From sequence record NC_019719.1: 41,528 bases of DNA. One strand, 5' to 3'. The position numbers and the translations under genes were made by a program. The notes under the pieces were generated by a model. The model was not told the DNA's origin, made no database searches, and saw nothing but the letters and a program-made list of their open reading frames with translations. Origin of the DNA: Escherichia phage HK633. Positions 1 through 22,463 of this stretch are shown here, piece by piece; the stretch's first letter is position 1; each line of letters opens with the position of its first letter.

Positions 1-52
1 ACTGTTTGAATTTAACGCTAACCCGATTTTTTTAGTTTTAAGGTGTTGACAT

Positions 53-538
53 ATGGCAGATAAACGAATCCGTTCCGACAGTTCGGCGGCAGCGGTTCAG
101 GCCATGAAAAATGCAGCTGTGGACACCATCGATCCGCCGTCCCATGCAGGTTTGGAGAAAAAAGCCGAACCATTCTGGCATGACAATATCAGATCGAAAG
201 CTCTGGACAGCTGGACGCCTGCCGACCTTCTAGCCGCCGTAGAACTTGCTAATAATCAGCTCTATATCACCGTTTTACGCAAGGATTTACGCAAAGAAGA
301 GCGCATACGCGGGGAGGAGCGAGACGAAGGCCTTATAAAAGACCTCCGCAAGCAAATTGTTGAGCTACAACGAACTATCCTGGCTCAGCGCCGCGACCTC
401 CAGATCCACTCCCACGCAACCAACGGCGAAAGTCGCGACCAGAAGAAACGTAATCAGAACGATCGTGATGCACGGAATACCAAAAACGAGCATCAGGACC
501 AGGACGATAACCTGATCGCCTTTCCCAAGCACGGATAA
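53..538 (+). CDS. Terminase small subunit (P27/HK97-type)
   Basis: First gene of the packaging module, directly upstream of TerL; AAGGTG RBS 7 nt before ATG at 53; 161 aa with charged C-terminal half typical of HK97-type TerS. Family assignment from recall, not a search. Confidence 0.75.
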   Translation: MADKRIRSDSSAAAVQAMKNAAVDTIDPPSHAGLEKKAEPFWHDNIRSKALDSWTPADLLAAVELANNQLYITVLRKDLRKEERIRGEERDEGLIKDLRKQIVELQRTILAQRRDLQIHSHATNGESRDQKKRNQNDRDARNTKNEHQDQDDNLIAFPKHG

Positions 539-3350: not shown

Positions 3351-4028
3351 ATGCCTGAAATCGTAAAAACGCTGTCCTTCGACGAGACAGAAATCAAATT
3401 CACCGGTGACGGTAAACAGGGGATTTTTGAAGGCTACGCCTCTGTTTTTAATAACACCGATTCCGATGGCGACATCATTCTGCCCGGGGCGTTTAAAAAC
3501 GCGCTGGCGAACCAGACCCGAAAAGTGGCGATGTTTTTTAACCACAGGACGTGGGAACTGCCGGTTGGCAAATGGGACAGCCTGGCTGAGGACGAAAAAG
3601 GCCTGTATGTGCGCGGTCAACTTACCCCAGGACACAGCGGCGCCGCTGACCTGAAAGCGGCAATGCAGCACGGTACGGTTGAAGGTATGTCGGTTGGCTT
3701 TTCCGTTTCGAAAGACGATTACACCATCATTCCAACAGGCCGCATTTTTAAGAATATCCAGGCTCTGCGCGAAATCAGCGTCTGCACTTTCCCCGCCAAC
3801 GAACAGGCTGGCATCGCAGCCATGAAAAGTGTCGATGGTATTGAAACGATTCGTGATGTGGAGAACTGGCTGAGGGATTCAGTCGGCCTCACCAAATCAC
3901 AGGCAGTTGGGCTAATTGCCCGGTTTAAGTCAGCGATTCGGAGCGAGTCCGAGGGCGACGGAAACGAAGCACAAATAAACGCTCTGCTTCAGAGCATCAA
4001 ATCTTTCCCTTCTAACTTAGGTAAATAA
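3351..4028 (+). CDS. Prohead maturation protease (HK97 gp4-like)
   Basis: ATG 3351 preceded by GGGGG 5 nt upstream gives 225 aa, the size I recall for HK97 gp4; ORF track starts 12 nt earlier at 3339. Confidence 0.85.
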   Translation: MPEIVKTLSFDETEIKFTGDGKQGIFEGYASVFNNTDSDGDIILPGAFKNALANQTRKVAMFFNHRTWELPVGKWDSLAEDEKGLYVRGQLTPGHSGAADLKAAMQHGTVEGMSVGFSVSKDDYTIIPTGRIFKNIQALREISVCTFPANEQAGIAAMKSVDGIETIRDVENWLRDSVGLTKSQAVGLIARFKSAIRSESEGDGNEAQINALLQSIKSFPSNLGK

Positions 4029-4030
4029 TT

Positions 4031-5188
4031 ATGTCTGAACTCGCTCTCATTCAAAAAGCTATCGAAGAATCCCAGCAGAAAATGACCCAGCTTTTCGATG
4101 CGCAGAAAGCAGAAATCGAAAGCACAGGCCAGGTTTCCAAACAGTTGCAGTCCGACCTGATGAAAGTACAGGAAGAGCTGACCAAATCCGGCACTCGCCT
4201 CTTCGATCTGGAACAGAAACTGGCATCCGGCGCTGAGAATCCTGGTGAGAAGAAATCCTTCTCTGAACGGGCTGCTGAAGAGCTTATTAAGTCATGGGAC
4301 GGTAAACAGGGCACCTTTGGCGCTAAAACGTTTAACAAGTCACTAGGCAGTGACGCTGATTCGGCTGGCTCACTGATCCAGCCTATGCAGATCCCAGGCA
4401 TCATCATGCCAGGCCTGCGCCGTCTTACCATTCGTGATCTGCTGGCTCAGGGCCGCACTTCCAGTAACGCTCTGGAATATGTGCGTGAAGAGGTGTTTAC
4501 CAATAACGCCGACGTGGTGGCAGAGAAAGCACTGAAGCCAGAATCGGATATCACCTTCAGCAAACAAACCGCGAACGTGAAGACCATCGCGCACTGGGTG
4601 CAGGCATCACGTCAGGTGATGGATGATGCGCCAATGCTTCAGTCCTACATTAACAACCGCCTCATGTACGGCCTGGCACTGAAGGAAGAGGGCCAGCTGC
4701 TGAACGGCGACGGTACCGGGGATAACCTGGAAGGGCTGAACAAAGTGGCAACCGCCTATGACACCTCGCTGAATGCCACCGGCGACACCCGCGCTGACAT
4801 TATCGCTCACGCTATTTATCAGGTGACCGAGTCTGAGTTCAGCGCTTCCGGTATCGTCCTGAACCCGCGCGACTGGCACAACATCGCGTTGCTGAAAGAC
4901 AATGAAGGCCGCTATATCTTCGGTGGTCCTCAGGCATTCACCAGTAACATCATGTGGGGCTTGCCAGTGGTTCCGACTAAGGCGCAGGCCGCCGGCACCT
5001 TTACCGTAGGCGGTTTCGATATGGCCTCACAGGTCTGGGATCGCATGGATGCCACCGTGGAAGTTAGCCGTGAAGACCGCGATAACTTCGTGAAAAACAT
5101 GCTGACCATCCTGTGCGAAGAGCGTCTGGCGCTGGCGCATTATCGCCCGACAGCAATCATCAAGGGCACCTTCTCTTCTGGCTCATGA
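4031..5188 (+). CDS. Major capsid protein (HK97 gp5 type)
   Basis: 385 aa; counting residues gives Lys103 (delta-domain cleavage boundary), Lys169, Asn356 and Glu363 at the positions known for HK97 isopeptide crosslinking. Confidence 0.95.
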   Translation: MSELALIQKAIEESQQKMTQLFDAQKAEIESTGQVSKQLQSDLMKVQEELTKSGTRLFDLEQKLASGAENPGEKKSFSERAAEELIKSWDGKQGTFGAKTFNKSLGSDADSAGSLIQPMQIPGIIMPGLRRLTIRDLLAQGRTSSNALEYVREEVFTNNADVVAEKALKPESDITFSKQTANVKTIAHWVQASRQVMDDAPMLQSYINNRLMYGLALKEEGQLLNGDGTGDNLEGLNKVATAYDTSLNATGDTRADIIAHAIYQVTESEFSASGIVLNPRDWHNIALLKDNEGRYIFGGPQAFTSNIMWGLPVVPTKAQAAGTFTVGGFDMASQVWDRMDATVEVSREDRDNFVKNMLTILCEERLALAHYRPTAIIKGTFSSGS

Positions 5189-5194
5189 TGGAGG

Positions 5195-17400: not shown

Positions 17401-18047
17401 TTAACGAGAAGGAGGCAACGGCGCGTTCTCTGCTGAGCCTGCAGACGGATGTCAACGGCAACAAGGCATCCATAAACAGCCTGAATCAGACGTTCTCCGA
17501 CTATCAGCAGGCTACGGCCACGCAGATAAACGGCATAACGGCGACGGTGAACGGGCATACCTCCGCCATCACCACTAACGCTCAGGCGATAGCCAACGTT
17601 AATGGCGACCTCAGCGCGATGTACAACATCAAGGTTGGCGTTTCCAGCAACGGTCAGTATTACGCCGCGGGGATGGGTATCGGCGTGGAGAATACGCCAT
17701 CCGGCATGCAGTCGCAGGTTATCTTCCTGGCTGATCGCTTCGCCGTCACCACGGCAGCCGGTAACAGCGTGGCTTTGCCGTTTGTGATCCAGAATGGACA
17801 GACATTCATCCGGGCCAGTTTCATCCAGGACGGCACTATCAGCAACGCAAAGATTGGTAATTTTATCCAGTCGAACAATTATGTTGCTGGTTCTGCTGGC
17901 TGGAAGCTTGATAAAGGGGGGACGTTTGAGAACTACGGTTCGACTGCTGGTGAGGGAGCCATGAAACTGACAAATCAGACGATCAGCGTCAAAGATGGCA
18001 GTAATGTTCTTAGGGTGCAGGTTGGCCGATTAACGGGAGTATTCTGA
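14496..18047 (+). CDS. J: Central tail fibre / host specificity protein J
   Basis: 1183 aa; N-terminus resembles lambda gpJ; fibronectin-III-like middle region; largest tail gene after I. Confidence 0.9.
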   Translation: MATATAIKGRKGGSSKTRTPTEQPDDLQSVAKAKILIALGEGEFSGQLTGKDIYLDGTALENADGSQNFSGVTWEFRAGTQAQKYIQGIPGTENEISVGTEVSSATAWTRTFTNTQLSAVRLRLKWPSLFKQEDDGDLVGYSVNYAIDLQTDGGTWQTVLNTSVTGKTTSGYERSHRIDLPQAGSTWTIRLRKITSDANSAKIGDTMMLQSFTEVIDAKLRYPNTALLYVEFDSSQFNGSIPQISCEPRGRVIRVPDTYDPETRTYSGTWTGAFKWAWTDNPAWIFYDLVVSDRFGLGHRLTAANIDKWTLYQVAQYCDQMVPDGKGGNGTEPRYTCNVYIQDRNDAYTVLRDFAAIFRGMTYWGGDQIVALADMPRDVDYSYTRANVVGGRFTYSSSTTKSRYTTALVSWSDPGNAYADAMEPVFEQALVARYGFNQLEMTAIGCTRQSEANRKGRWGILTNNKDRVVSFDVGLDGNIPQPGYIIAVADELLSGKVMGGRISAVNGRVIKLDRVADAAPGDRLILNLPSGASQSRTIQAVNGESVTVTTAYSETPQAEAVWVVESDELYAQQYRVVSVSDNNDGTFSITGAWHDPDKYARIDTGAIIDQRPVSVIPPGNQSPPANIVISSFSVVQQNISVETMRVSWDQAQNAIAYEAQWRRNDGNWVNVPRTSTTSFDVPGIYAGRYLVRVRAINAAEISSGWGYSEEKTLTGKVGNPPKPVGFIASENVVFGIELNWGFPANTDDTLKTEIQYSLTGTEDDAMLLADVPYPQRKYQQMGLKAGQIFWYRAQLVDRSGNESGYTGWVRGQASIDVSDITDVILEDIKGSETFKDLIENAVDSNEKIAGMADDIKQANDELELQAQEIAKNAQDIGQVQTSVNELSSTVGDVSSSLSDLEQTVATADTALGQRIDSISVSMDGMTGGVKNSAIAIIQNGLAQVATRKSLSASVAGNSAQLDRIDEVIVNEKEATARSLLSLQTDVNGNKASINSLNQTFSDYQQATATQINGITATVNGHTSAITTNAQAIANVNGDLSAMYNIKVGVSSNGQYYAAGMGIGVENTPSGMQSQVIFLADRFAVTTAAGNSVALPFVIQNGQTFIRASFIQDGTISNAKIGNFIQSNNYVAGSAGWKLDKGGTFENYGSTAGEGAMKLTNQTISVKDGSNVLRVQVGRLTGVF

Positions 18048-18048
18048 A

Positions 18049-18351
18049 ATGGCTTATGGAATACAGACCTGGGATGCTTCAGGAAAACCCAACAACTATG
18101 GCATCAAACCCGTTTCCGTCGTTGGGCGAATACAGCTGGCTGCCGGGCAAACCTCAGGCAGCTGGTCTTTTACGGTGCCCTCAGGAATGAAAGTTGGTTT
18201 TGTTCTTTCACTTGATGAAGGAGGTAACAGCGTAGGGCGGCGCATTGTCGCGTCAGGGAGCACAATAACCGTAAGCGCTGCATCTTCTGTAGGTCTGGGT
18301 AATTATCCGGCCTCAAAGTGTGAAGTGGTCGTTTTCATGGAGAAAGCATAA
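18049..18351 (+). CDS. Hypothetical protein, translationally coupled to J
   Basis: 100 aa; starts 2 nt after J stop; beta-rich composition. Confidence 0.55.
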   Translation: MAYGIQTWDASGKPNNYGIKPVSVVGRIQLAAGQTSGSWSFTVPSGMKVGFVLSLDEGGNSVGRRIVASGSTITVSAASSVGLGNYPASKCEVVVFMEKA

Positions 18352-18989
18352 TGGCCGAATTTGGCGCGATGATATTAATGGACAACGGGAACCCATTTGT
18401 AACGCCCCAGTCAACGCCTTTTTGTCTTTACGGCAAGTACACTTTCAACTCCTCTGCTAATGGCAGTTCGCAGCAGGTTGCTCAGAATATTGCATTAAAT
18501 GCTGACTACCCTGTGATGGTATTTATCAGGACCACAAATACCGCCCAGCCCACGCCAGTAATATCTTACCGGAACGGCGGAAATATATATGTCGCGGGGG
18601 TTAATCCCTATAACCAGAGCTTCACGTTAACCGCATATATTTTTGCCATATTTCCCCAGACGTTACCGAAATGGGGGATGGCCATCTGGGATTCGAGCGG
18701 GAAGCTGGTACTCACTAATGAGTCCCGCGTGCTGTCAGACTTGCAGACAATCGGAACGCCTGGAGCAAACGGCGGGATTAACATTGACCAGACGCTTGAT
18801 GGTTCATGGGCAGTGGCTCCATCAAGGCTGGGGCAAGTGAACAGAAACGACGCTTACTCATCTTGTAGGTATTCAGGCACAAGTACAAGAATAAACGCCG
18901 GTACAGCCGCAAATACACCTGGCGGTGCTGGAGGGGTGATAAATAATGGAATTATCCTGACAGCAATTAAAACAGACGCCTATGACTGA
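18351..18989 (+). CDS. Hypothetical protein (possible tail-associated)
   Basis: 212 aa; TAATG overlap with upstream ORF; Gly/Asn/Thr-rich. Confidence 0.55.
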   Translation: MAEFGAMILMDNGNPFVTPQSTPFCLYGKYTFNSSANGSSQQVAQNIALNADYPVMVFIRTTNTAQPTPVISYRNGGNIYVAGVNPYNQSFTLTAYIFAIFPQTLPKWGMAIWDSSGKLVLTNESRVLSDLQTIGTPGANGGINIDQTLDGSWAVAPSRLGQVNRNDAYSSCRYSGTSTRINAGTAANTPGGAGGVINNGIILTAIKTDAYD

Positions 18990-19096
18990 TTGTTTTGAGC
19001 GATCAATAACAAATAATTTATCTATCTAATCAATTATACCCATCGATTATGTATTGGTATCTTCGAAGCTACTGAATACCTCTGGATACTATCAAA

Positions 19097-19330
19097 ATGA
19101 AAAGGCTAATTATCTGCATAGCGGGCGCTTTAATGCTGTCTGGTTGTGCTGGTGTACTTGAGAAACAGAAACCGATTTGCAGCGGCACGGCATATATGGG
19201 TGGCCATGAGAATACCGTTATGATTTACGCCGTTCGAAAGCAAAACAACCAGACGCAATACCGGGCCGGATATCCCTTTAACTGGCGCTGGGTAAGTGCG
19301 AACACATTCACAAGCACGACATGTAAATAA
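19097..19330 (+). CDS. Small lipoprotein moron (candidate Cor-type exclusion lipoprotein)
   Basis: 77 aa; signal peptide with lipobox LSGC; AT-rich upstream region 18990-19096; own terminator. Cor assignment is positional only. Confidence 0.65.
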   Translation: MKRLIICIAGALMLSGCAGVLEKQKPICSGTAYMGGHENTVMIYAVRKQNNQTQYRAGYPFNWRWVSANTFTSTTCK

Positions 19331-19350
19331 CTCATGATTTTCAATGCAAA

Positions 19351-19372
19351 CCTCGCCTCGGCGGGGTTTTTT
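19351..19372 (+). terminator. Intrinsic terminator (CCTCGC-CTCG-GCGGGG + T6)
   Basis: GC stem with one G-U pair followed by TTTTTT. Confidence 0.65.
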
Positions 19373-19388
19373 ATTGCCTGGAGAAAAT

Positions 19389-20660
19389 ATGCTTTATAAC
19401 ACTGGAACCATCGCCATTAACGGAAACAGCGCCACCGGCACGGGCACGAACTGGACGGCACCCGCCAGCCAGGTTCGCGCTGGCCAGACGATTATCGTGA
19501 TGTCTAACCCGGTGCAGCTGTTTCAGATTTCATCCGTGAACAGCGCCACGTCAATGACGGTTACTCCAGCTGCTTCCCCGGCGCTGAGCGGCCAGAAGTA
19601 CGGCATTCTTGTTACTGATAGTCTCTCGGTTGATGGCCTGGCGCAGAGCATGTCTCAGCTCATCAACGAGTATGACGAGAACATCGGCGCCTGGGAGACA
19701 TTTGCCACCACCTCAGCAAATCAGAACATCACCGTTACCATCAACGGCGCTCGTGTAACCATTCCGGCGATCGGCAAACTGGTCCAGAAAGGGAGCAATG
19801 GGGCGGTTGGAGTTTCGGACGGCGGGACCGGGGCAACGAATGCCGCTGACGCTCGCACAAACCTCGGTTTGGTTAAACAGACTTCTATTGATGACGGCAC
19901 ACCGGGTCGATTACTTACTACCGAGTATTCCTTCGGGCTAGGACCAGCGCCCAGATCAACATATCCAATGGGTCAGGGAACACAGTTTTTGATTTATGCA
20001 TCAACACCCAGCAACGGAGAGACTCCGGATTCTTCACTCGGTTGCGGCGTGCAGGTCGCATACGATTCTACAAGAAGGGCTCAATATTTCATAAAAACTA
20101 ATGGATATTTTTATAGTCGGTTTTCACTAACATCAGGAATTCTTGATGCATCCACTGCGTGGAATATGCACTATACAACCAAGAATACTACTAAATCTAG
20201 CGATGGAACCCTTAAGGCTGCGTCTCCGGTTGCCCGTATTGTAGCGAGCCAAGAAGCCTGCCAGCGCTCAGATATAACTGAGGATGGTTTCTCCTGGTGC
20301 GGCTGCGGTACGGCGAATGCAGAAGCTGAAGGTATCAGCATATCTCGTCTTGATGTAGGTGTTTATACGCTTACCGGTTCAGCAGGCCTGGCTTCTTCTG
20401 GCTGGCAACTCTTACCACCTATGGATCCTGGTGGTATGGGGGAGCTAGGTGTCGTTGAGGCAGAGCAAGCCGAAAGCGGCGACCTGACGATTCGCCTGTA
20501 TAAACGCAAATATATCCTAAGCGATGAAGGTGAGATCGTCAAAACCAAAGGTGAATTGATGGACGTGCCGGCGAACAGTTGGATCGATGTGCGTCTCGAT
20601 ATGCCTGAAAGCAGTGCCTGGAATCAGCGTCAGAAAGAGGCGGCTGAGCCTGCTTCGTAA
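19389..20660 (+). CDS. Tail fibre-like protein (putative receptor-binding)
   Basis: 423 aa from ATG 19389 (GGAG RBS); track start 19344 lies inside the terminator; Gly/Thr/Ser-rich, last structural gene before the attachment region. Confidence 0.55.
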   Translation: MLYNTGTIAINGNSATGTGTNWTAPASQVRAGQTIIVMSNPVQLFQISSVNSATSMTVTPAASPALSGQKYGILVTDSLSVDGLAQSMSQLINEYDENIGAWETFATTSANQNITVTINGARVTIPAIGKLVQKGSNGAVGVSDGGTGATNAADARTNLGLVKQTSIDDGTPGRLLTTEYSFGLGPAPRSTYPMGQGTQFLIYASTPSNGETPDSSLGCGVQVAYDSTRRAQYFIKTNGYFYSRFSLTSGILDASTAWNMHYTTKNTTKSSDGTLKAASPVARIVASQEACQRSDITEDGFSWCGCGTANAEAEGISISRLDVGVYTLTGSAGLASSGWQLLPPMDPGGMGELGVVEAEQAESGDLTIRLYKRKYILSDEGEIVKTKGELMDVPANSWIDVRLDMPESSAWNQRQKEAAEPAS

Positions 20661-20831
20661 AAGAAACCGCCGTCTGTCGTATGCAAGAACGGGCGGCGGC
20701 TGGCTGGCGAACTTACGATAGTGCGAGTATTGAATGATTTCCAGCCGTTACCGATTTTACTATGTTTTCAGTAGAACACTCAGACAAAACTGAGACACAC
20801 AAAGCTTTGTACTGGATTGCAAGACTTTGTG

Positions 20832-22013
20832 CTATCTGAGATATAGCAATGTTGGTTGCTCCACCTTTTCATCAACCCAATCCGCCCACCACTGCATCAT
20901 TTCTCTGCGCTTATCGAGATACTGAGCATGGTTGTAAATCCCACGCACAGATCCGCCGTTGGCATGTGCCAGTTGCACTTCAATAGCATCAGCAGGCCAT
21001 TCGTGCTCGTTCATAATCGTGCTGAATTCATGCCTGAATCCGTGACCGCTTTCCAGACCTTCATAGCCGATTTGTTTGATCACAAGCAATACCGCGTTCT
21101 CGCAGATTGGCTTCTTCTTATCGTTGCGCCCGGCAAAAACAAACTCTGATACTGGTTTAGTGATGGAGCTTAGCGTAGTGAGAAGTTCAACCACCTGGTC
21201 TGACATAGGAACAACATGAATCTTGCGTCCCTTCATCACACTGGCGTCGATAGTGATAATCCTGTTTTCAAAATCGACGTTCTTCCATTGCATGGAACGA
21301 AGCTCTTTCGTTCTTAGGGCTGTGTAGCGTAAAACTTTGGTCGCAATGAGCGATACGATGCTTCCTGAAAATGTTGCCAGTGCTTTGTTGAATGCCGGGA
21401 TCTGGTCTGCAGGAAGAAACGGGAAGTTCTTCTTGCGGTATCCCTTCATGGCGTCAGCAAGGTCAGGTGCCGGGTTATATTTAGCCCTTCCGGTGACAAT
21501 AGCGTAACGGAAAACCTCGCCGCATCTTCTGCGGGCTTTGTTGGCTCGCTCCATTGCACCGCGATCTTCAAATCTGCGGATTACTTCCAACAGTTGCATC
21601 GGCTCAATATCCTGAATCTCAAGACCGCCGATGATGGGTAAAATGTCGTCATCAAACATTTTTGCAAGTTCATTTGCATAGCCTACTGACCAGACTTGCT
21701 TCTTGTGCTCGTACCATTCCTTGTAAATGGCGCTAAAGGAATTGTTGTTAGACGAAGCCTTTTTCGCTTTTACCGGATCGATGCCAACCGAGATGTCTTT
21801 CCTCGCGGTCCATGCTTTATCCCTTGCCTCCTGCAAAGTCATAAGCGGATATTTTCCTACGGTCAGGATTTTCTCCTTACCGTCAATCTTGTAGCGAAGC
21901 TGCCATACCTTTTTCCCTGACACAGGGACAAAAAGGTACAGGCCATTACCATCGAGAAGGCGGTATGGTTTTTCTTTCGGCTTTGCTGCTTCTATCTGCT
22001 TAACGGTGAGCAT
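20832..22013 (-). CDS. int: Tyrosine integrase (P4-type)
   Basis: N-terminal AKPKEKPYRLLDGNGLYL arm-binding motif; C-terminal HxxR and RGIYNHAQY catalytic region; ATG 22013 preferred over the GTG at 22049. Confidence 0.85.
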   Translation of the reverse strand: MLTVKQIEAAKPKEKPYRLLDGNGLYLFVPVSGKKVWQLRYKIDGKEKILTVGKYPLMTLQEARDKAWTARKDISVGIDPVKAKKASSNNNSFSAIYKEWYEHKKQVWSVGYANELAKMFDDDILPIIGGLEIQDIEPMQLLEVIRRFEDRGAMERANKARRRCGEVFRYAIVTGRAKYNPAPDLADAMKGYRKKNFPFLPADQIPAFNKALATFSGSIVSLIATKVLRYTALRTKELRSMQWKNVDFENRIITIDASVMKGRKIHVVPMSDQVVELLTTLSSITKPVSEFVFAGRNDKKKPICENAVLLVIKQIGYEGLESGHGFRHEFSTIMNEHEWPADAIEVQLAHANGGSVRGIYNHAQYLDKRREMMQWWADWVDEKVEQPTLLYLR

Positions 22014-22262
22014 GGGTAAAAATCCGGTGGGTAAAATTATTTTATCCACTTTTTACCCGTCATGGAGTGCGGCTGTCAACGATCTGAAGCGAACTATTAC
22101 GAACGGTGAATCTACGGAAAGCTTGATATTCAGGGAATTTTGCGGACTGGTACGGATGGGGGCGAACTGATAAATGGTGTCCCCTGCAGACATCTACTTG
22201 AAGCAGCAGGGGATTGATTGGAATGGTGTTTTTTAGATGTGAGAAATATTTTACCCGCTATT

Positions 22263-22463
22263 TTACCCATTGGCGCGGCTTAAGAGCTTATTTTTGAATT
22301 CACAATGGTCACGATATAACCATCTTGCTCGACCGTGGATAACTTTGGCTTTTGGCAGGTCGCCGGACTTAATCCGGTCATAGATGAAGGTTTTACCGAA
22401 GCCAGTATCGGCCATGATGAATTTCAAATCAACCAGTGAATCAGGCTGTAGTTCGTGTTGCAT
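22263..22463 (-). CDS. xis: AlpA-family excisionase / transcriptional regulator
   Basis: 66 aa, GGAGAT RBS; helix-turn-helix; adjacent to and upstream of int. Confidence 0.75.
   Translation of the reverse strand: MQHELQPDSLVDLKFIMADTGFGKTFIYDRIKSGDLPKAKVIHGRARWLYRDHCEFKNKLLSRANG

Follow-up and report, generated by a model that had tools for sequence, protein, structure and literature searches.

Escherichia phage HK633 carries a Cor exclusion lipoprotein gene and a side tail fibre gene at the distal end of its tail operon

Lipoproteins of the Cor type have been described in several phages as agents of superinfection exclusion. Cor of HK022, N15 and phi80 inactivates FhuA and thereby keeps out phages that depend on it, as stated in the part of PMC3594210 that cites Uc-Mass 2004, and the receptor of HK022 is itself encoded by fhuA (PMC6814406). 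Llp of phage T5, solved in complex with FhuA (8A60), is likewise a small outer-membrane lipoprotein that targets FhuA and causes superinfection exclusion; Llp and Cor are treated in the literature as one functional family, with an identity of ~20% according to the same literature, and both hold a terminal cysteine pair (Cys11-Cys58 in Llp, Cys12 and Cys60 in mature Cor), yet Llp is made early in infection by a lytic phage and not from a prophage. HK97 and HK106 have, as HK633 does, a side tail fibre gene, stf, that follows cor and closes the late operon. In HK97 and HK106 the fibre has another distal half and comes with a separate Tfa assembly protein, whereas the HK633 fibre ends in the PF25670 domain and is without Tfa; the fibre of HK022 also differs from it at the C-terminus. 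The PF25670/PHROG 1591 fibres of phi80, HK75, mEp234, ECP1 and many Enterobacter or E. coli prophages share with that of HK633 the same three-part architecture, the absence of tfa and an overall identity of 45-89%.

The window analysed here is the complete genome of Escherichia phage HK633 (NC_019719.1; 41,528 nucleotides; 50.3% AT, 49.7% GC). Gene J is followed by an ORF of 100 aa, an ORF of ~212-224 aa, cor, a terminator and stf, and this order in HK633 (Table 1) matches the annotation of phi80 (Cor, CBH95076.1) and N15 (Cor, gp24), with the same order from J to stf visible in HK022 too; the initial annotation had named this very site as the one that Cor occupies in the three phages. The gap before cor, cor itself, the terminator and the start of stf are kept almost base for base across several sequenced phages, which places them beyond chance. 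The region has the usual make-up of the distal end of the late (tail) operon in an HK022-like lambdoid siphophage, and it is an ordinary one that has been correctly read, cor and stf being already annotated in GenBank for HK633. Taken as a whole, it is best explained as the close of the tail operon, made up of a Cor unit for FhuA exclusion and, behind it, a side tail fibre gene, a reading to which we assign a probability of roughly 0.88. A PADLOC search with Cor, Stf and the two J-coupled ORFs returned zero matches.

Table 1. [quoted passage not shown]
Feature	Position	Strand	Description
J	end at 18047		from ORF listing and raw sequence
First J-coupled ORF	18049-18351		100 aa; tightly packed behind J
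Second J-coupled ORF	18351-18989		212 aa; tightly packed
Intergenic gap	18990-19096	none	separates second J-coupled ORF from cor; presumably holds promoter and 5' UTR of cor
-35-like hexamer ATTATA	19033-19038	+	by homology to annotated cor -35 of phi80; weak consensus match
Extended -10 TGGTATCTT	19055-19063	+	predicted; homologous to phi80-annotated promoter
cor	19097-19330	+	77-aa phage exclusion lipoprotein Cor
Cor signal peptide	19097-19144	+	
Codon of lipidated Cys17	19145-19147	+	
Intrinsic terminator of cor unit	19348-19375	+	9-bp stem, 4-nt loop, T-run
GGAG ribosome-binding site	19380-19383	+	5 nt before stf start; invariant in five phages
stf	19389-20660	+	423-aa side tail fibre protein
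Stf residues 1-161	19389-19871	+	conserved N-terminal part ending in GGTGATNAADARTNLGL; presumed tail attachment
Stf residues 162-260	19872-20168	+	hypervariable stretch; candidate receptor-specificity module
Stf residues 266-407	20184-20609	+	conserved C-terminal domain PF25670 (Pfam)
GC-rich hairpin just past stf stop	20667-20699	-	fold computed; followed on minus strand by TTTCTTTT, T-run read by eye
IntS-type (HK620/Sf6/CPS-53) tyrosine integrase	20832-22049	-	Pfam Arm-DNA-bind_3, Phage_int_M, Phage_integrase; actual stf neighbour
attP core TGGTGTCCCCTGCAG	22175-22189	none	identical to 3' end of tRNA-Arg argW; between int and xis-like ORF 22263-22463

The gene behind the gap encodes a protein that begins with MKRLIICIAGALMLSGC and is, as initially annotated, a lipoprotein of 77 aa with the lipobox L-S-G-C17. 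It had been proposed that this protein may play a role similar to that of Cor, which proved an understatement, since the protein is Cor itself: the suggested alignment to Cor proteins gave 100% identity to HK022 Cor and 79% to phi80 Cor, the NCBIfam Cor equivalog NF047972 was matched over profile positions 1-76 of 78 with 138.8 bits against a cutoff of 31 (E = 4.2e-41), PHROG 1119 was matched at 2.4e-37, and the exact sequence is found on 151 contigs, where it is named Cor. The same 77-aa sequence is present in HK022 (AAF30376.1), HK75, HK106, HK542 and HK544. HK022 and HK633 further share the flanking gap, the terminator and the position behind J and the two J-coupled ORFs, and their cor genes are set apart by one synonymous base in the Cys17 codon (TGT against TGC), while in phi80 and N15 the N-terminal third of mature Cor and the region upstream have diverged. 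The precursor opens with a lipoprotein signal peptide, MKRLIICIAGALMLSG, followed by C17-A18; processing is predicted, and the alanine at +2, being non-Asp, is of the kind that goes with outer-membrane sorting. Among 30 Cor homologues C17 is invariant, and so are Y55, G58, P60, F61, W65 and C76, with C28, R56, A57, Y59, N62 and W63 conserved in at least 90%; the cysteine pair C28/C76 and the core motif YRAGYPFNW are both present in HK633 Cor. No family was found for Cor in a Pfam search, and a PDB sequence search gave a sole match to TraV at the level of the signal peptide (E = 1.9).

A lipoprotein at this position could have a function other than FhuA blockade, for instance as a spanin-like lysis component or as a host-fitness or virulence factor of the Bor/Lom type. 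The functions of small phage lipoproteins are diverse, and for this one neither a Pfam family nor a PADLOC match nor a significant relative among solved structures was obtained; still, it is identical to the Cor of HK022, which is reported to inactivate FhuA, it scores far above the cutoff of a curated equivalog model, and its gene lies in the same phage as a J protein that shares 99% identity with its counterpart in the FhuA-dependent HK022, with zero differences past residue 1021. We therefore regard another function as very improbable. The sequence evidence supports a Cor that would shut off the FhuA receptor in HK633 lysogens. The precursor would be cut between LSG and C17 and then lipidated, and the mature protein would inactivate FhuA so that FhuA-dependent phages become unable to adsorb or inject; besides HK633 and HK022 themselves, the excluded phages would include phi80, N15 and T1. 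Judging from T5 Llp, Cor probably attaches to the periplasmic face of the FhuA plug and closes the extracellular loops. The AF2 model of Cor has a pLDDT of 82.7, and a Foldseek search of the PDB with it returned nothing at E <= 0.001, the top matches being generic small beta-barrels of the Tudor/chromo-like kind. Llp (8a60_B) came at rank 44 with E = 0.41 and TM 0.45-0.54, and as the Cor model matches it just weakly, the Llp-like mechanism is drawn from the literature.

The gap in front of cor had been noted as 107 bp long and AT-rich, and it measures 107 bp at 70.1% AT against 50.3% for the genome; in terms of GC, the gap has 30%, cor 47% and the genome 49.7%. HK022, HK75 and mEp234 have almost the same gap sequence, and alignment shows it largely conserved in phi80, where good conservation upstream of cor is limited to a TGnTAT element and ~35 bp at the end of the leader. 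This element is common to HK633, phi80 and N15, the equivalents of the HK633 extended -10 being TGGTATTGT in phi80 and TGTTATTGT in N15. The phi80 record, in which cor is annotated with a lipoprotein signal peptide, also holds a promoter, a transcription start and a terminator at homologous positions, and mapping from it by alignment predicts a start at ~19071 in HK633. A strict sigma-70 consensus scan of the gap found no promoter; the mapped -35 is poor, and 19 nt separate it from the -10 hexamer. At the other end, the terminator that cor had been said to have of its own was recovered: the terminator scan gave a 9-bp stem (19348-19369) with TTTATT behind it, and the RNA of 19331-19392 folds at -18.4 kcal/mol (z = -2.1). 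The records of mEp234, HK106 and phi80 annotate a rho-independent terminator at this position too.

A moron, as reportedly defined by Juhala et al. in 2000, has an independent promoter and terminator, is expressed in the prophage and is atypical in composition. HK633 cor, a candidate moron, would form a small self-contained transcription unit, with a presumed extended -10 promoter in the gap and the intrinsic terminator behind it, and its presumed own promoter together with the terminator would allow it to be expressed from a repressed prophage. The stf gene, on the other hand, would depend wholly on late transcription continuing past the cor terminator; going by lambda biology, Q-antiterminated late transcripts probably read through into it.

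The long ORF that contains stf opens at 19344, and the start given in the initial annotation, at 19389 with a GGAG ribosome-binding site just past the terminator, is confirmed: GGAG, five nucleotides and the ATG at 19389 lead into a protein of 423 aa, this block is invariant in phi80, HK022, HK75 and mEp234, and the ATG at 19344 is ACA in phi80. The protein had also been described as rich in Gly, Ser and Thr, which make up 10.6%, 10.6% and 10.2% of it (31.4% in total). The suggestion that it may be a side tail fibre is supported by a PHROG 1591 match over residues 1-421 (1.3e-136), by a Pfam match to PF25670 (Phage_tail_C_2; 8.1e-31, 107.3 bits against a cutoff of 27), by the deposition of the exact 423-aa protein as "side tail fiber protein [Escherichia phage HK633]" and by the alignment to side tail fibres that had been called for, in which residues 1-172 are 84-87% identical to the N-terminus of the HK97 and HK106 Stf (84.3% and 87.2%, respectively). 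A conserved antisense gene inside stf, like "gp25" of phi80, was rejected, the frame holding a stop in HK633.

Stf is a mosaic. The N-terminal part is 68-97% conserved in sliding windows over 40 homologues, with the minimum at its C-terminal edge, and residues 2-97 align with the N-terminal part of depolymerases from Klebsiella phages (e.g. 7lzj, 8e-13). Residues 162-260 show either 87-91% or 8-22% identity among homologues between flanks that are 77-99% identical, and GC drops to 0.36-0.44 in the last ~50 codons of this stretch. The HK633 allele is a rare one: 87-91% identity is reached only in a handful of proteins from Enterobacter and E. coli prophages (P0002-P0007) and other sequenced phages have none above 45%, the phage records that match it being only those of Hafnia and Proteus phages (37-45%). 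When this stretch alone was searched against the PDB, an insignificant resemblance (E = 0.4) to endo-beta-N-acetylglucosaminidase repeats was obtained. Residues 140-407 match the C-terminus of the long-tail-fibre proximal protein of SU10 (7z47_D, 2.8e-9). The AF2 monomer model of Stf, made from a 40-sequence alignment, was poor (mean pLDDT 51.5), and its Foldseek matches, all with TM < 0.2 (R-pyocin fibre, phage K gp144, IgG Fc), were discarded as meaningless, so that structure gives no support to the domain roles considered below.

It could be argued that the 423-aa gene has lost its function or can be dispensed with, as a relic comparable to the frameshifted stf of laboratory lambda, or that it encodes a virion or tail-associated protein other than a fibre, with no influence on host range. 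Lambda does adsorb without side fibres (PMC10721106), the HK633 structure model is of low confidence, the exact allele comes from one genome only, and no tfa chaperone gene lies behind stf, where no ORF of at least 40 aa fits wholly between its stop at 20660 and int. However, several annotated relatives, including phi80, HK75 and mEp234, are likewise without tfa, and Tfa is thus not a defining trait of the PF25670 subgroup; moreover, the ORF is intact and of full length compared with 120 homologues, which range from 344 to 453 aa with nearly all of them at 415-453 aa, its ribosome-binding site and start are conserved, and the strong conservation of both flanks of the variable stretch implies selection. 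A relic or a non-fibre protein is accordingly an improbable account, and we retain the side tail fibre.

As a side tail fibre, Stf would presumably be trimeric, with its conserved N-terminal third anchoring it to the tail, and it may set host range, as the initial annotation proposed. By analogy with the Stf of lambda Ur, it would speed initial reversible adsorption, and the binding of J to FhuA would still be the irreversible step. We tentatively propose that in fibres of the PF25670 class the exchangeable stretch of residues 162-260 carries receptor specificity and the conserved C-terminal domain serves in folding or trimerisation, as a built-in module that replaces Tfa; such a role would fit the absence of a separate chaperone gene, and the rare allele of HK633, found otherwise almost exclusively in prophages of the Enterobacter cloacae complex and a few of E. 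coli, could then steer the first contact of adsorption to a surface structure that these hosts have in common. In most tail fibres, though, the receptor-binding part is C-terminal, which argues against an internal stretch as the specificity module. The C-terminus of SU10 gp12, homologous to that of Stf, belongs to a proximal fibre segment and joins a second protein (PMC9509320), which hints that the PF25670 domain docks and does not act as a chaperone. Perhaps the fibre is real and its specificity resides in the conserved C-terminal domain, which is predicted to be beta-rich (pLDDT ~70-78) and might recognise a widely shared receptor, for instance an LPS core sugar, with the middle serving as a spacer or as an antigenic or decoy surface; the discrete replacement of alleles between conserved flanks, and also the foreign GC content of residues 162-260, are instead the usual signature of a specificity determinant. 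Each placement of specificity, in the internal stretch or in the C-terminal domain, is a possibility that we regard as less likely than not.

Beyond the stop of stf, the hairpin on the minus strand looks like a terminator for leftward transcripts from the int side, and it belongs to a widely conserved junction, positions 20664-20760 being present in 5403 out of 5426 E. coli genomes. The initial annotation had placed stf before attP. This does not hold: a position of attP between stf and int was rejected, as int adjoins stf and the attP core lies beyond int, on its upstream side. A tRNA scan of the whole genome found none, so attP was placed with the help of E. coli chromosomes: similarity to the intS-argW junctions of K-12 and PEC389 ends at the core. 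The attP core annotated in HK620 (1368-1383) maps to 22174-22189 of HK633. Around int, the DNA of the early/left region has 98.7% identity to HK620 over the aligned 55% of 21001-41528. With attP upstream of int, integration leaves stf and int next to each other, and in the PEC389 prophage a tail-fibre gene and intS are contiguous, next to argW.

The main value of these results lies in a confirmed annotation, Cor and Stf being in GenBank already and Cor being identical to that of HK022. The correct start of stf is at 19389; in some relatives, HK75 among them, the annotated gene starts from an ATG further upstream and runs through the cor terminator. If the internal stretch of Stf proves to be receptor-binding, swapping it may help in the engineering of host range. 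Finally, in phages of the IntS/argW type attP is located upstream of int, and the cor-stf-int block hence remains intact at one end of the prophage.

Distal to J, HK633 carries cor, a lipoprotein gene, and stf, a side tail fibre gene, both already annotated in public HK633 records, and the region is in this sense an ordinary, known feature. The initial annotation had described an AT-rich gap after the J-coupled ORFs (two, packed between J and cor), a 77-aa lipoprotein with the lipobox LSGC and its own terminator, a Gly/Ser/Thr-rich protein of 423 aa and, beyond it, attP. Its observations are confirmed and its interpretation is supported except for the attP placement: the gap was reproduced, the lipoprotein ORF was recovered from the ORF list and raw sequence with a lipoprotein-type signal peptide (MKRLIICIAGALMLSGC), and Gly, Ser and Thr make up 31.4% of the large protein. 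The phi80 and N15 annotations show the order J, 100-aa ORF, ~212-224-aa ORF, cor, terminator, stf, and HK022 has it too, so that the lipoprotein does occupy the cor slot of these phages, as had been proposed. HK022 p24 and p25 are exact counterparts of the two J-coupled ORFs, which are also conserved in phi80 and N15. Neither ORF belongs to a Pfam or NCBIfam family, the sole match being a weak sub-threshold one to Tailspike_C, and nothing seems to justify their PHROG labels, "outer membrane protein" and "membrane associated protein". HK75 matches the left arm at 98% identity, with HK106, mEpX1 and mEp234 also close, and the int region shares 98.7% identity with HK620 where the right half of the window aligns; the 41,528-bp HK633 genome is a mosaic in which an HK75/HK022-like structural arm (98%) adjoins an HK620/Sf6-like int region.

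Features of the J-distal region and the int-attP interval of HK633
Feature	Position	Strand	Remarks
J end	18047		ORF list and raw sequence
First J-coupled ORF	18049-18351		100 aa
Second J-coupled ORF	18351-18989		212 aa
Intergenic gap	18990-19096		107 bp, 70% AT (window overall 50% GC)
Mapped -35, poor	19033-19038		phi80 annotation via alignment
Predicted extended -10	19055-19063		TGGTATCTT; mapped from phi80 annotation
Mapped cor transcription start	~19071		phi80 annotation via alignment
cor (lipoprotein ORF)	19097-19330		77 aa; start MKRLIICIAGALMLSGC
cor terminator stem-loop	19348-19369		terminator scan; followed by a T-run
Stf conserved N-terminal zone	Stf 1-161		40-homologue alignment
Stf hypervariable middle zone	Stf 162-260 (19872-20168)		40-homologue alignment
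Stf conserved C-terminal zone	Stf 261-423		40-homologue alignment
IntS-type integrase	20832-22049	minus	gene next after stf
attP core	22175-22189		TGGTGTCCCCTGCAG; 15-bp 3′ end of tRNA-Arg argW
xis-like ORF	22263-22463		beyond attP core from int

Judged by its sequence, the lipoprotein is Cor. The alignment that had been suggested gave 100% protein identity to HK022 Cor and 79% to phi80 Cor, and the score on the NCBIfam equivalog "phage exclusion lipoprotein Cor" was 138.8 bits (cutoff 31), which supports the proposed Cor-like receptor-blocking role. PHROG 1119 was matched at 2.4e-37, tblastn found 100% matches in HK75, HK542, HK544 and HK106, all annotated Cor, and 151 contigs carry the exact sequence. 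Across 30 homologues C17, C76, Y55, G58, P60, F61 and W65 are invariant, and conservation is 90% or higher at C28 and at most positions of YRAGYPFNW. In PMC3594210, citing Uc-Mass et al. 2004, Cor of HK022, N15 and phi80 is described as protecting lysogens from FhuA-dependent phages by inactivating FhuA, and ferrichrome uptake as being lowered too. Since the HK022 receptor is encoded by fhuA (PMC6814406) and J is identical to HK022 J at 1169 of 1183 residues (0 differences past residue 1021), HK633 is almost certainly FhuA-dependent, and Cor would block the phage's own receptor in HK633 lysogens. In the crystal structure of FhuA with Llp, the T5 superinfection-exclusion lipoprotein, Llp binds the plug from the periplasm and loops EL7 and EL8 fold inward; its authors expect a similar action of Cor (PMC9586334), and in a 2026 preprint Cor and Llp fall into one group on the basis of their predicted folds. 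Our AF2 model of Cor reached a pLDDT of 82.7 (>90 in the mature domain), and Foldseek returned no match to it at E <= 0.001, ranking Llp (8a60_B) 44th (E = 0.41, TM 0.45-0.54); an Llp-like mechanism for Cor is therefore one that we infer from the literature. By the established Lol sorting rule, the Ala at +2 of Cor predicts outer-membrane sorting.

The cor terminator is solid, as the scan and the fold (-18.4 kcal/mol, z = -2.1) bear out, whereas the promoter is less secure and is regarded as putative. A strict sigma-70 scan found none in the 107-bp gap, and the promoter parts were placed by mapping through alignment from the phi80 record, in which cor is called a moron and is given a -35, a -10, a transcription start, a signal peptide and a terminator; the counterparts of the extended -10 are TGGTATTGT in phi80 and TGTTATTGT in N15. 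By analogy with lambda, stf would be reached solely by antiterminated late transcripts. Its long ORF opens at 19344, and a GGAG followed after 5 nt by the ATG at 19389 gives the 423-aa product. The upstream ATG is absent from phi80 and the terminator-GGAG-ATG block is unchanged across phi80, HK022, HK75 and mEp234, which makes 19389 credible as the true start proposed initially. The GenBank fibre gene of HK75 (3845-5191) begins at the upstream ATG, equivalent to 19344 in HK633, and runs through the cor terminator hairpin; this start is probably misannotated. The fibre genes of mEp234 and HK633 begin at the GGAG-preceded ATG. Inside stf, phi80 has an annotated antisense moron, "gp25", matching a minus-strand frame at 19394-19651. 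In HK633 this frame is broken by a stop after 42 codons, and in HK022 at the same place, which argues against a conserved gene.

The 423-aa protein is, from its homologies, a side tail fibre, as had been supposed. An identical protein occurs once in the records, under the name "side tail fiber protein [Escherichia phage HK633]"; the match to PHROG 1591 "tail fiber protein" spans residues 1-421 (1.3e-136), that to Pfam PF25670 spans residues 266-407 (8e-31), and alignment to side tail fibres gave 84-87% identity to HK97 and HK106 Stf over residues 1-172. Klebsiella phage depolymerases match residues 2-97 through their N-termini (7lzj, 8e-13), and SU10 gp12, the proximal protein of the long tail fibre, matches residues 140-407 through its C-terminal part (7z47_D, 2.8e-9), a chain of which residues 1-90 only were built (PMC9509320). 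The ORF list contains no gene for Tfa, the tail fibre assembly chaperone, after stf; phi80, HK75 and mEp234 likewise have none after the fibre gene, unlike HK106 and HK97.

The placement of these genes before attP did not hold, as the integrase adjoins stf. Positions 22040-22189 match the intS-argW junction of E. coli K-12 and many other strains, the similarity ending exactly past TGGTGTCCCCTGCAG, and the annotated HK620 attP core (1368-1383) maps to 22174-22189. We therefore place attP between int and the xis-like ORF, about 1.5 kb past stf; a site between stf and int is ruled out by the argW-derived core on the far side of int. In the PEC389 prophage the genes run J ... fibre genes - intS - argW, so that the integrase and the fibre gene nearest to it stay contiguous after integration. 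Tail-fibre genes and intS remain neighbours in argW prophages. In E. coli ET479 (NZ_CP100950.1, 1480475-1480709, annotated torI) the whole int-attP-xis interval is uninterrupted (100% coverage, 97.5% identity), which may reflect a tandem or differently integrated prophage. The ~100 bp after the stf stop (20664-20760), with a GC-rich hairpin at 20667-20699, occur in 5403 of 5426 complete E. coli genomes (median 3 copies), and always have a tail-fibre, tfa or pin module ending on one side and leftward genes (dinI-like, int) on the other; they probably serve as a convergent terminator and a mosaic junction.

Within Stf, the flanks of the middle zone are 77-99% identical in nearly all homologues, while the HK633 middle zone is 87-91% identical in six Enterobacter and E. 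coli proteins and 8-22% in all others; it behaves as a discrete exchangeable allele. GC drops to 0.36-0.44 over its last ~50 codons. This allele otherwise occurs mainly in Enterobacter prophages, and in no other sequenced phage does identity to it exceed 45%. The monomer structure prediction was poor (pLDDT 51.5) and a fold search with it gave no meaningful match; for this reason the domain roles are only inferred, the N-terminal zone perhaps serving as anchor, the middle as receptor module and the C-terminal zone as folding module.
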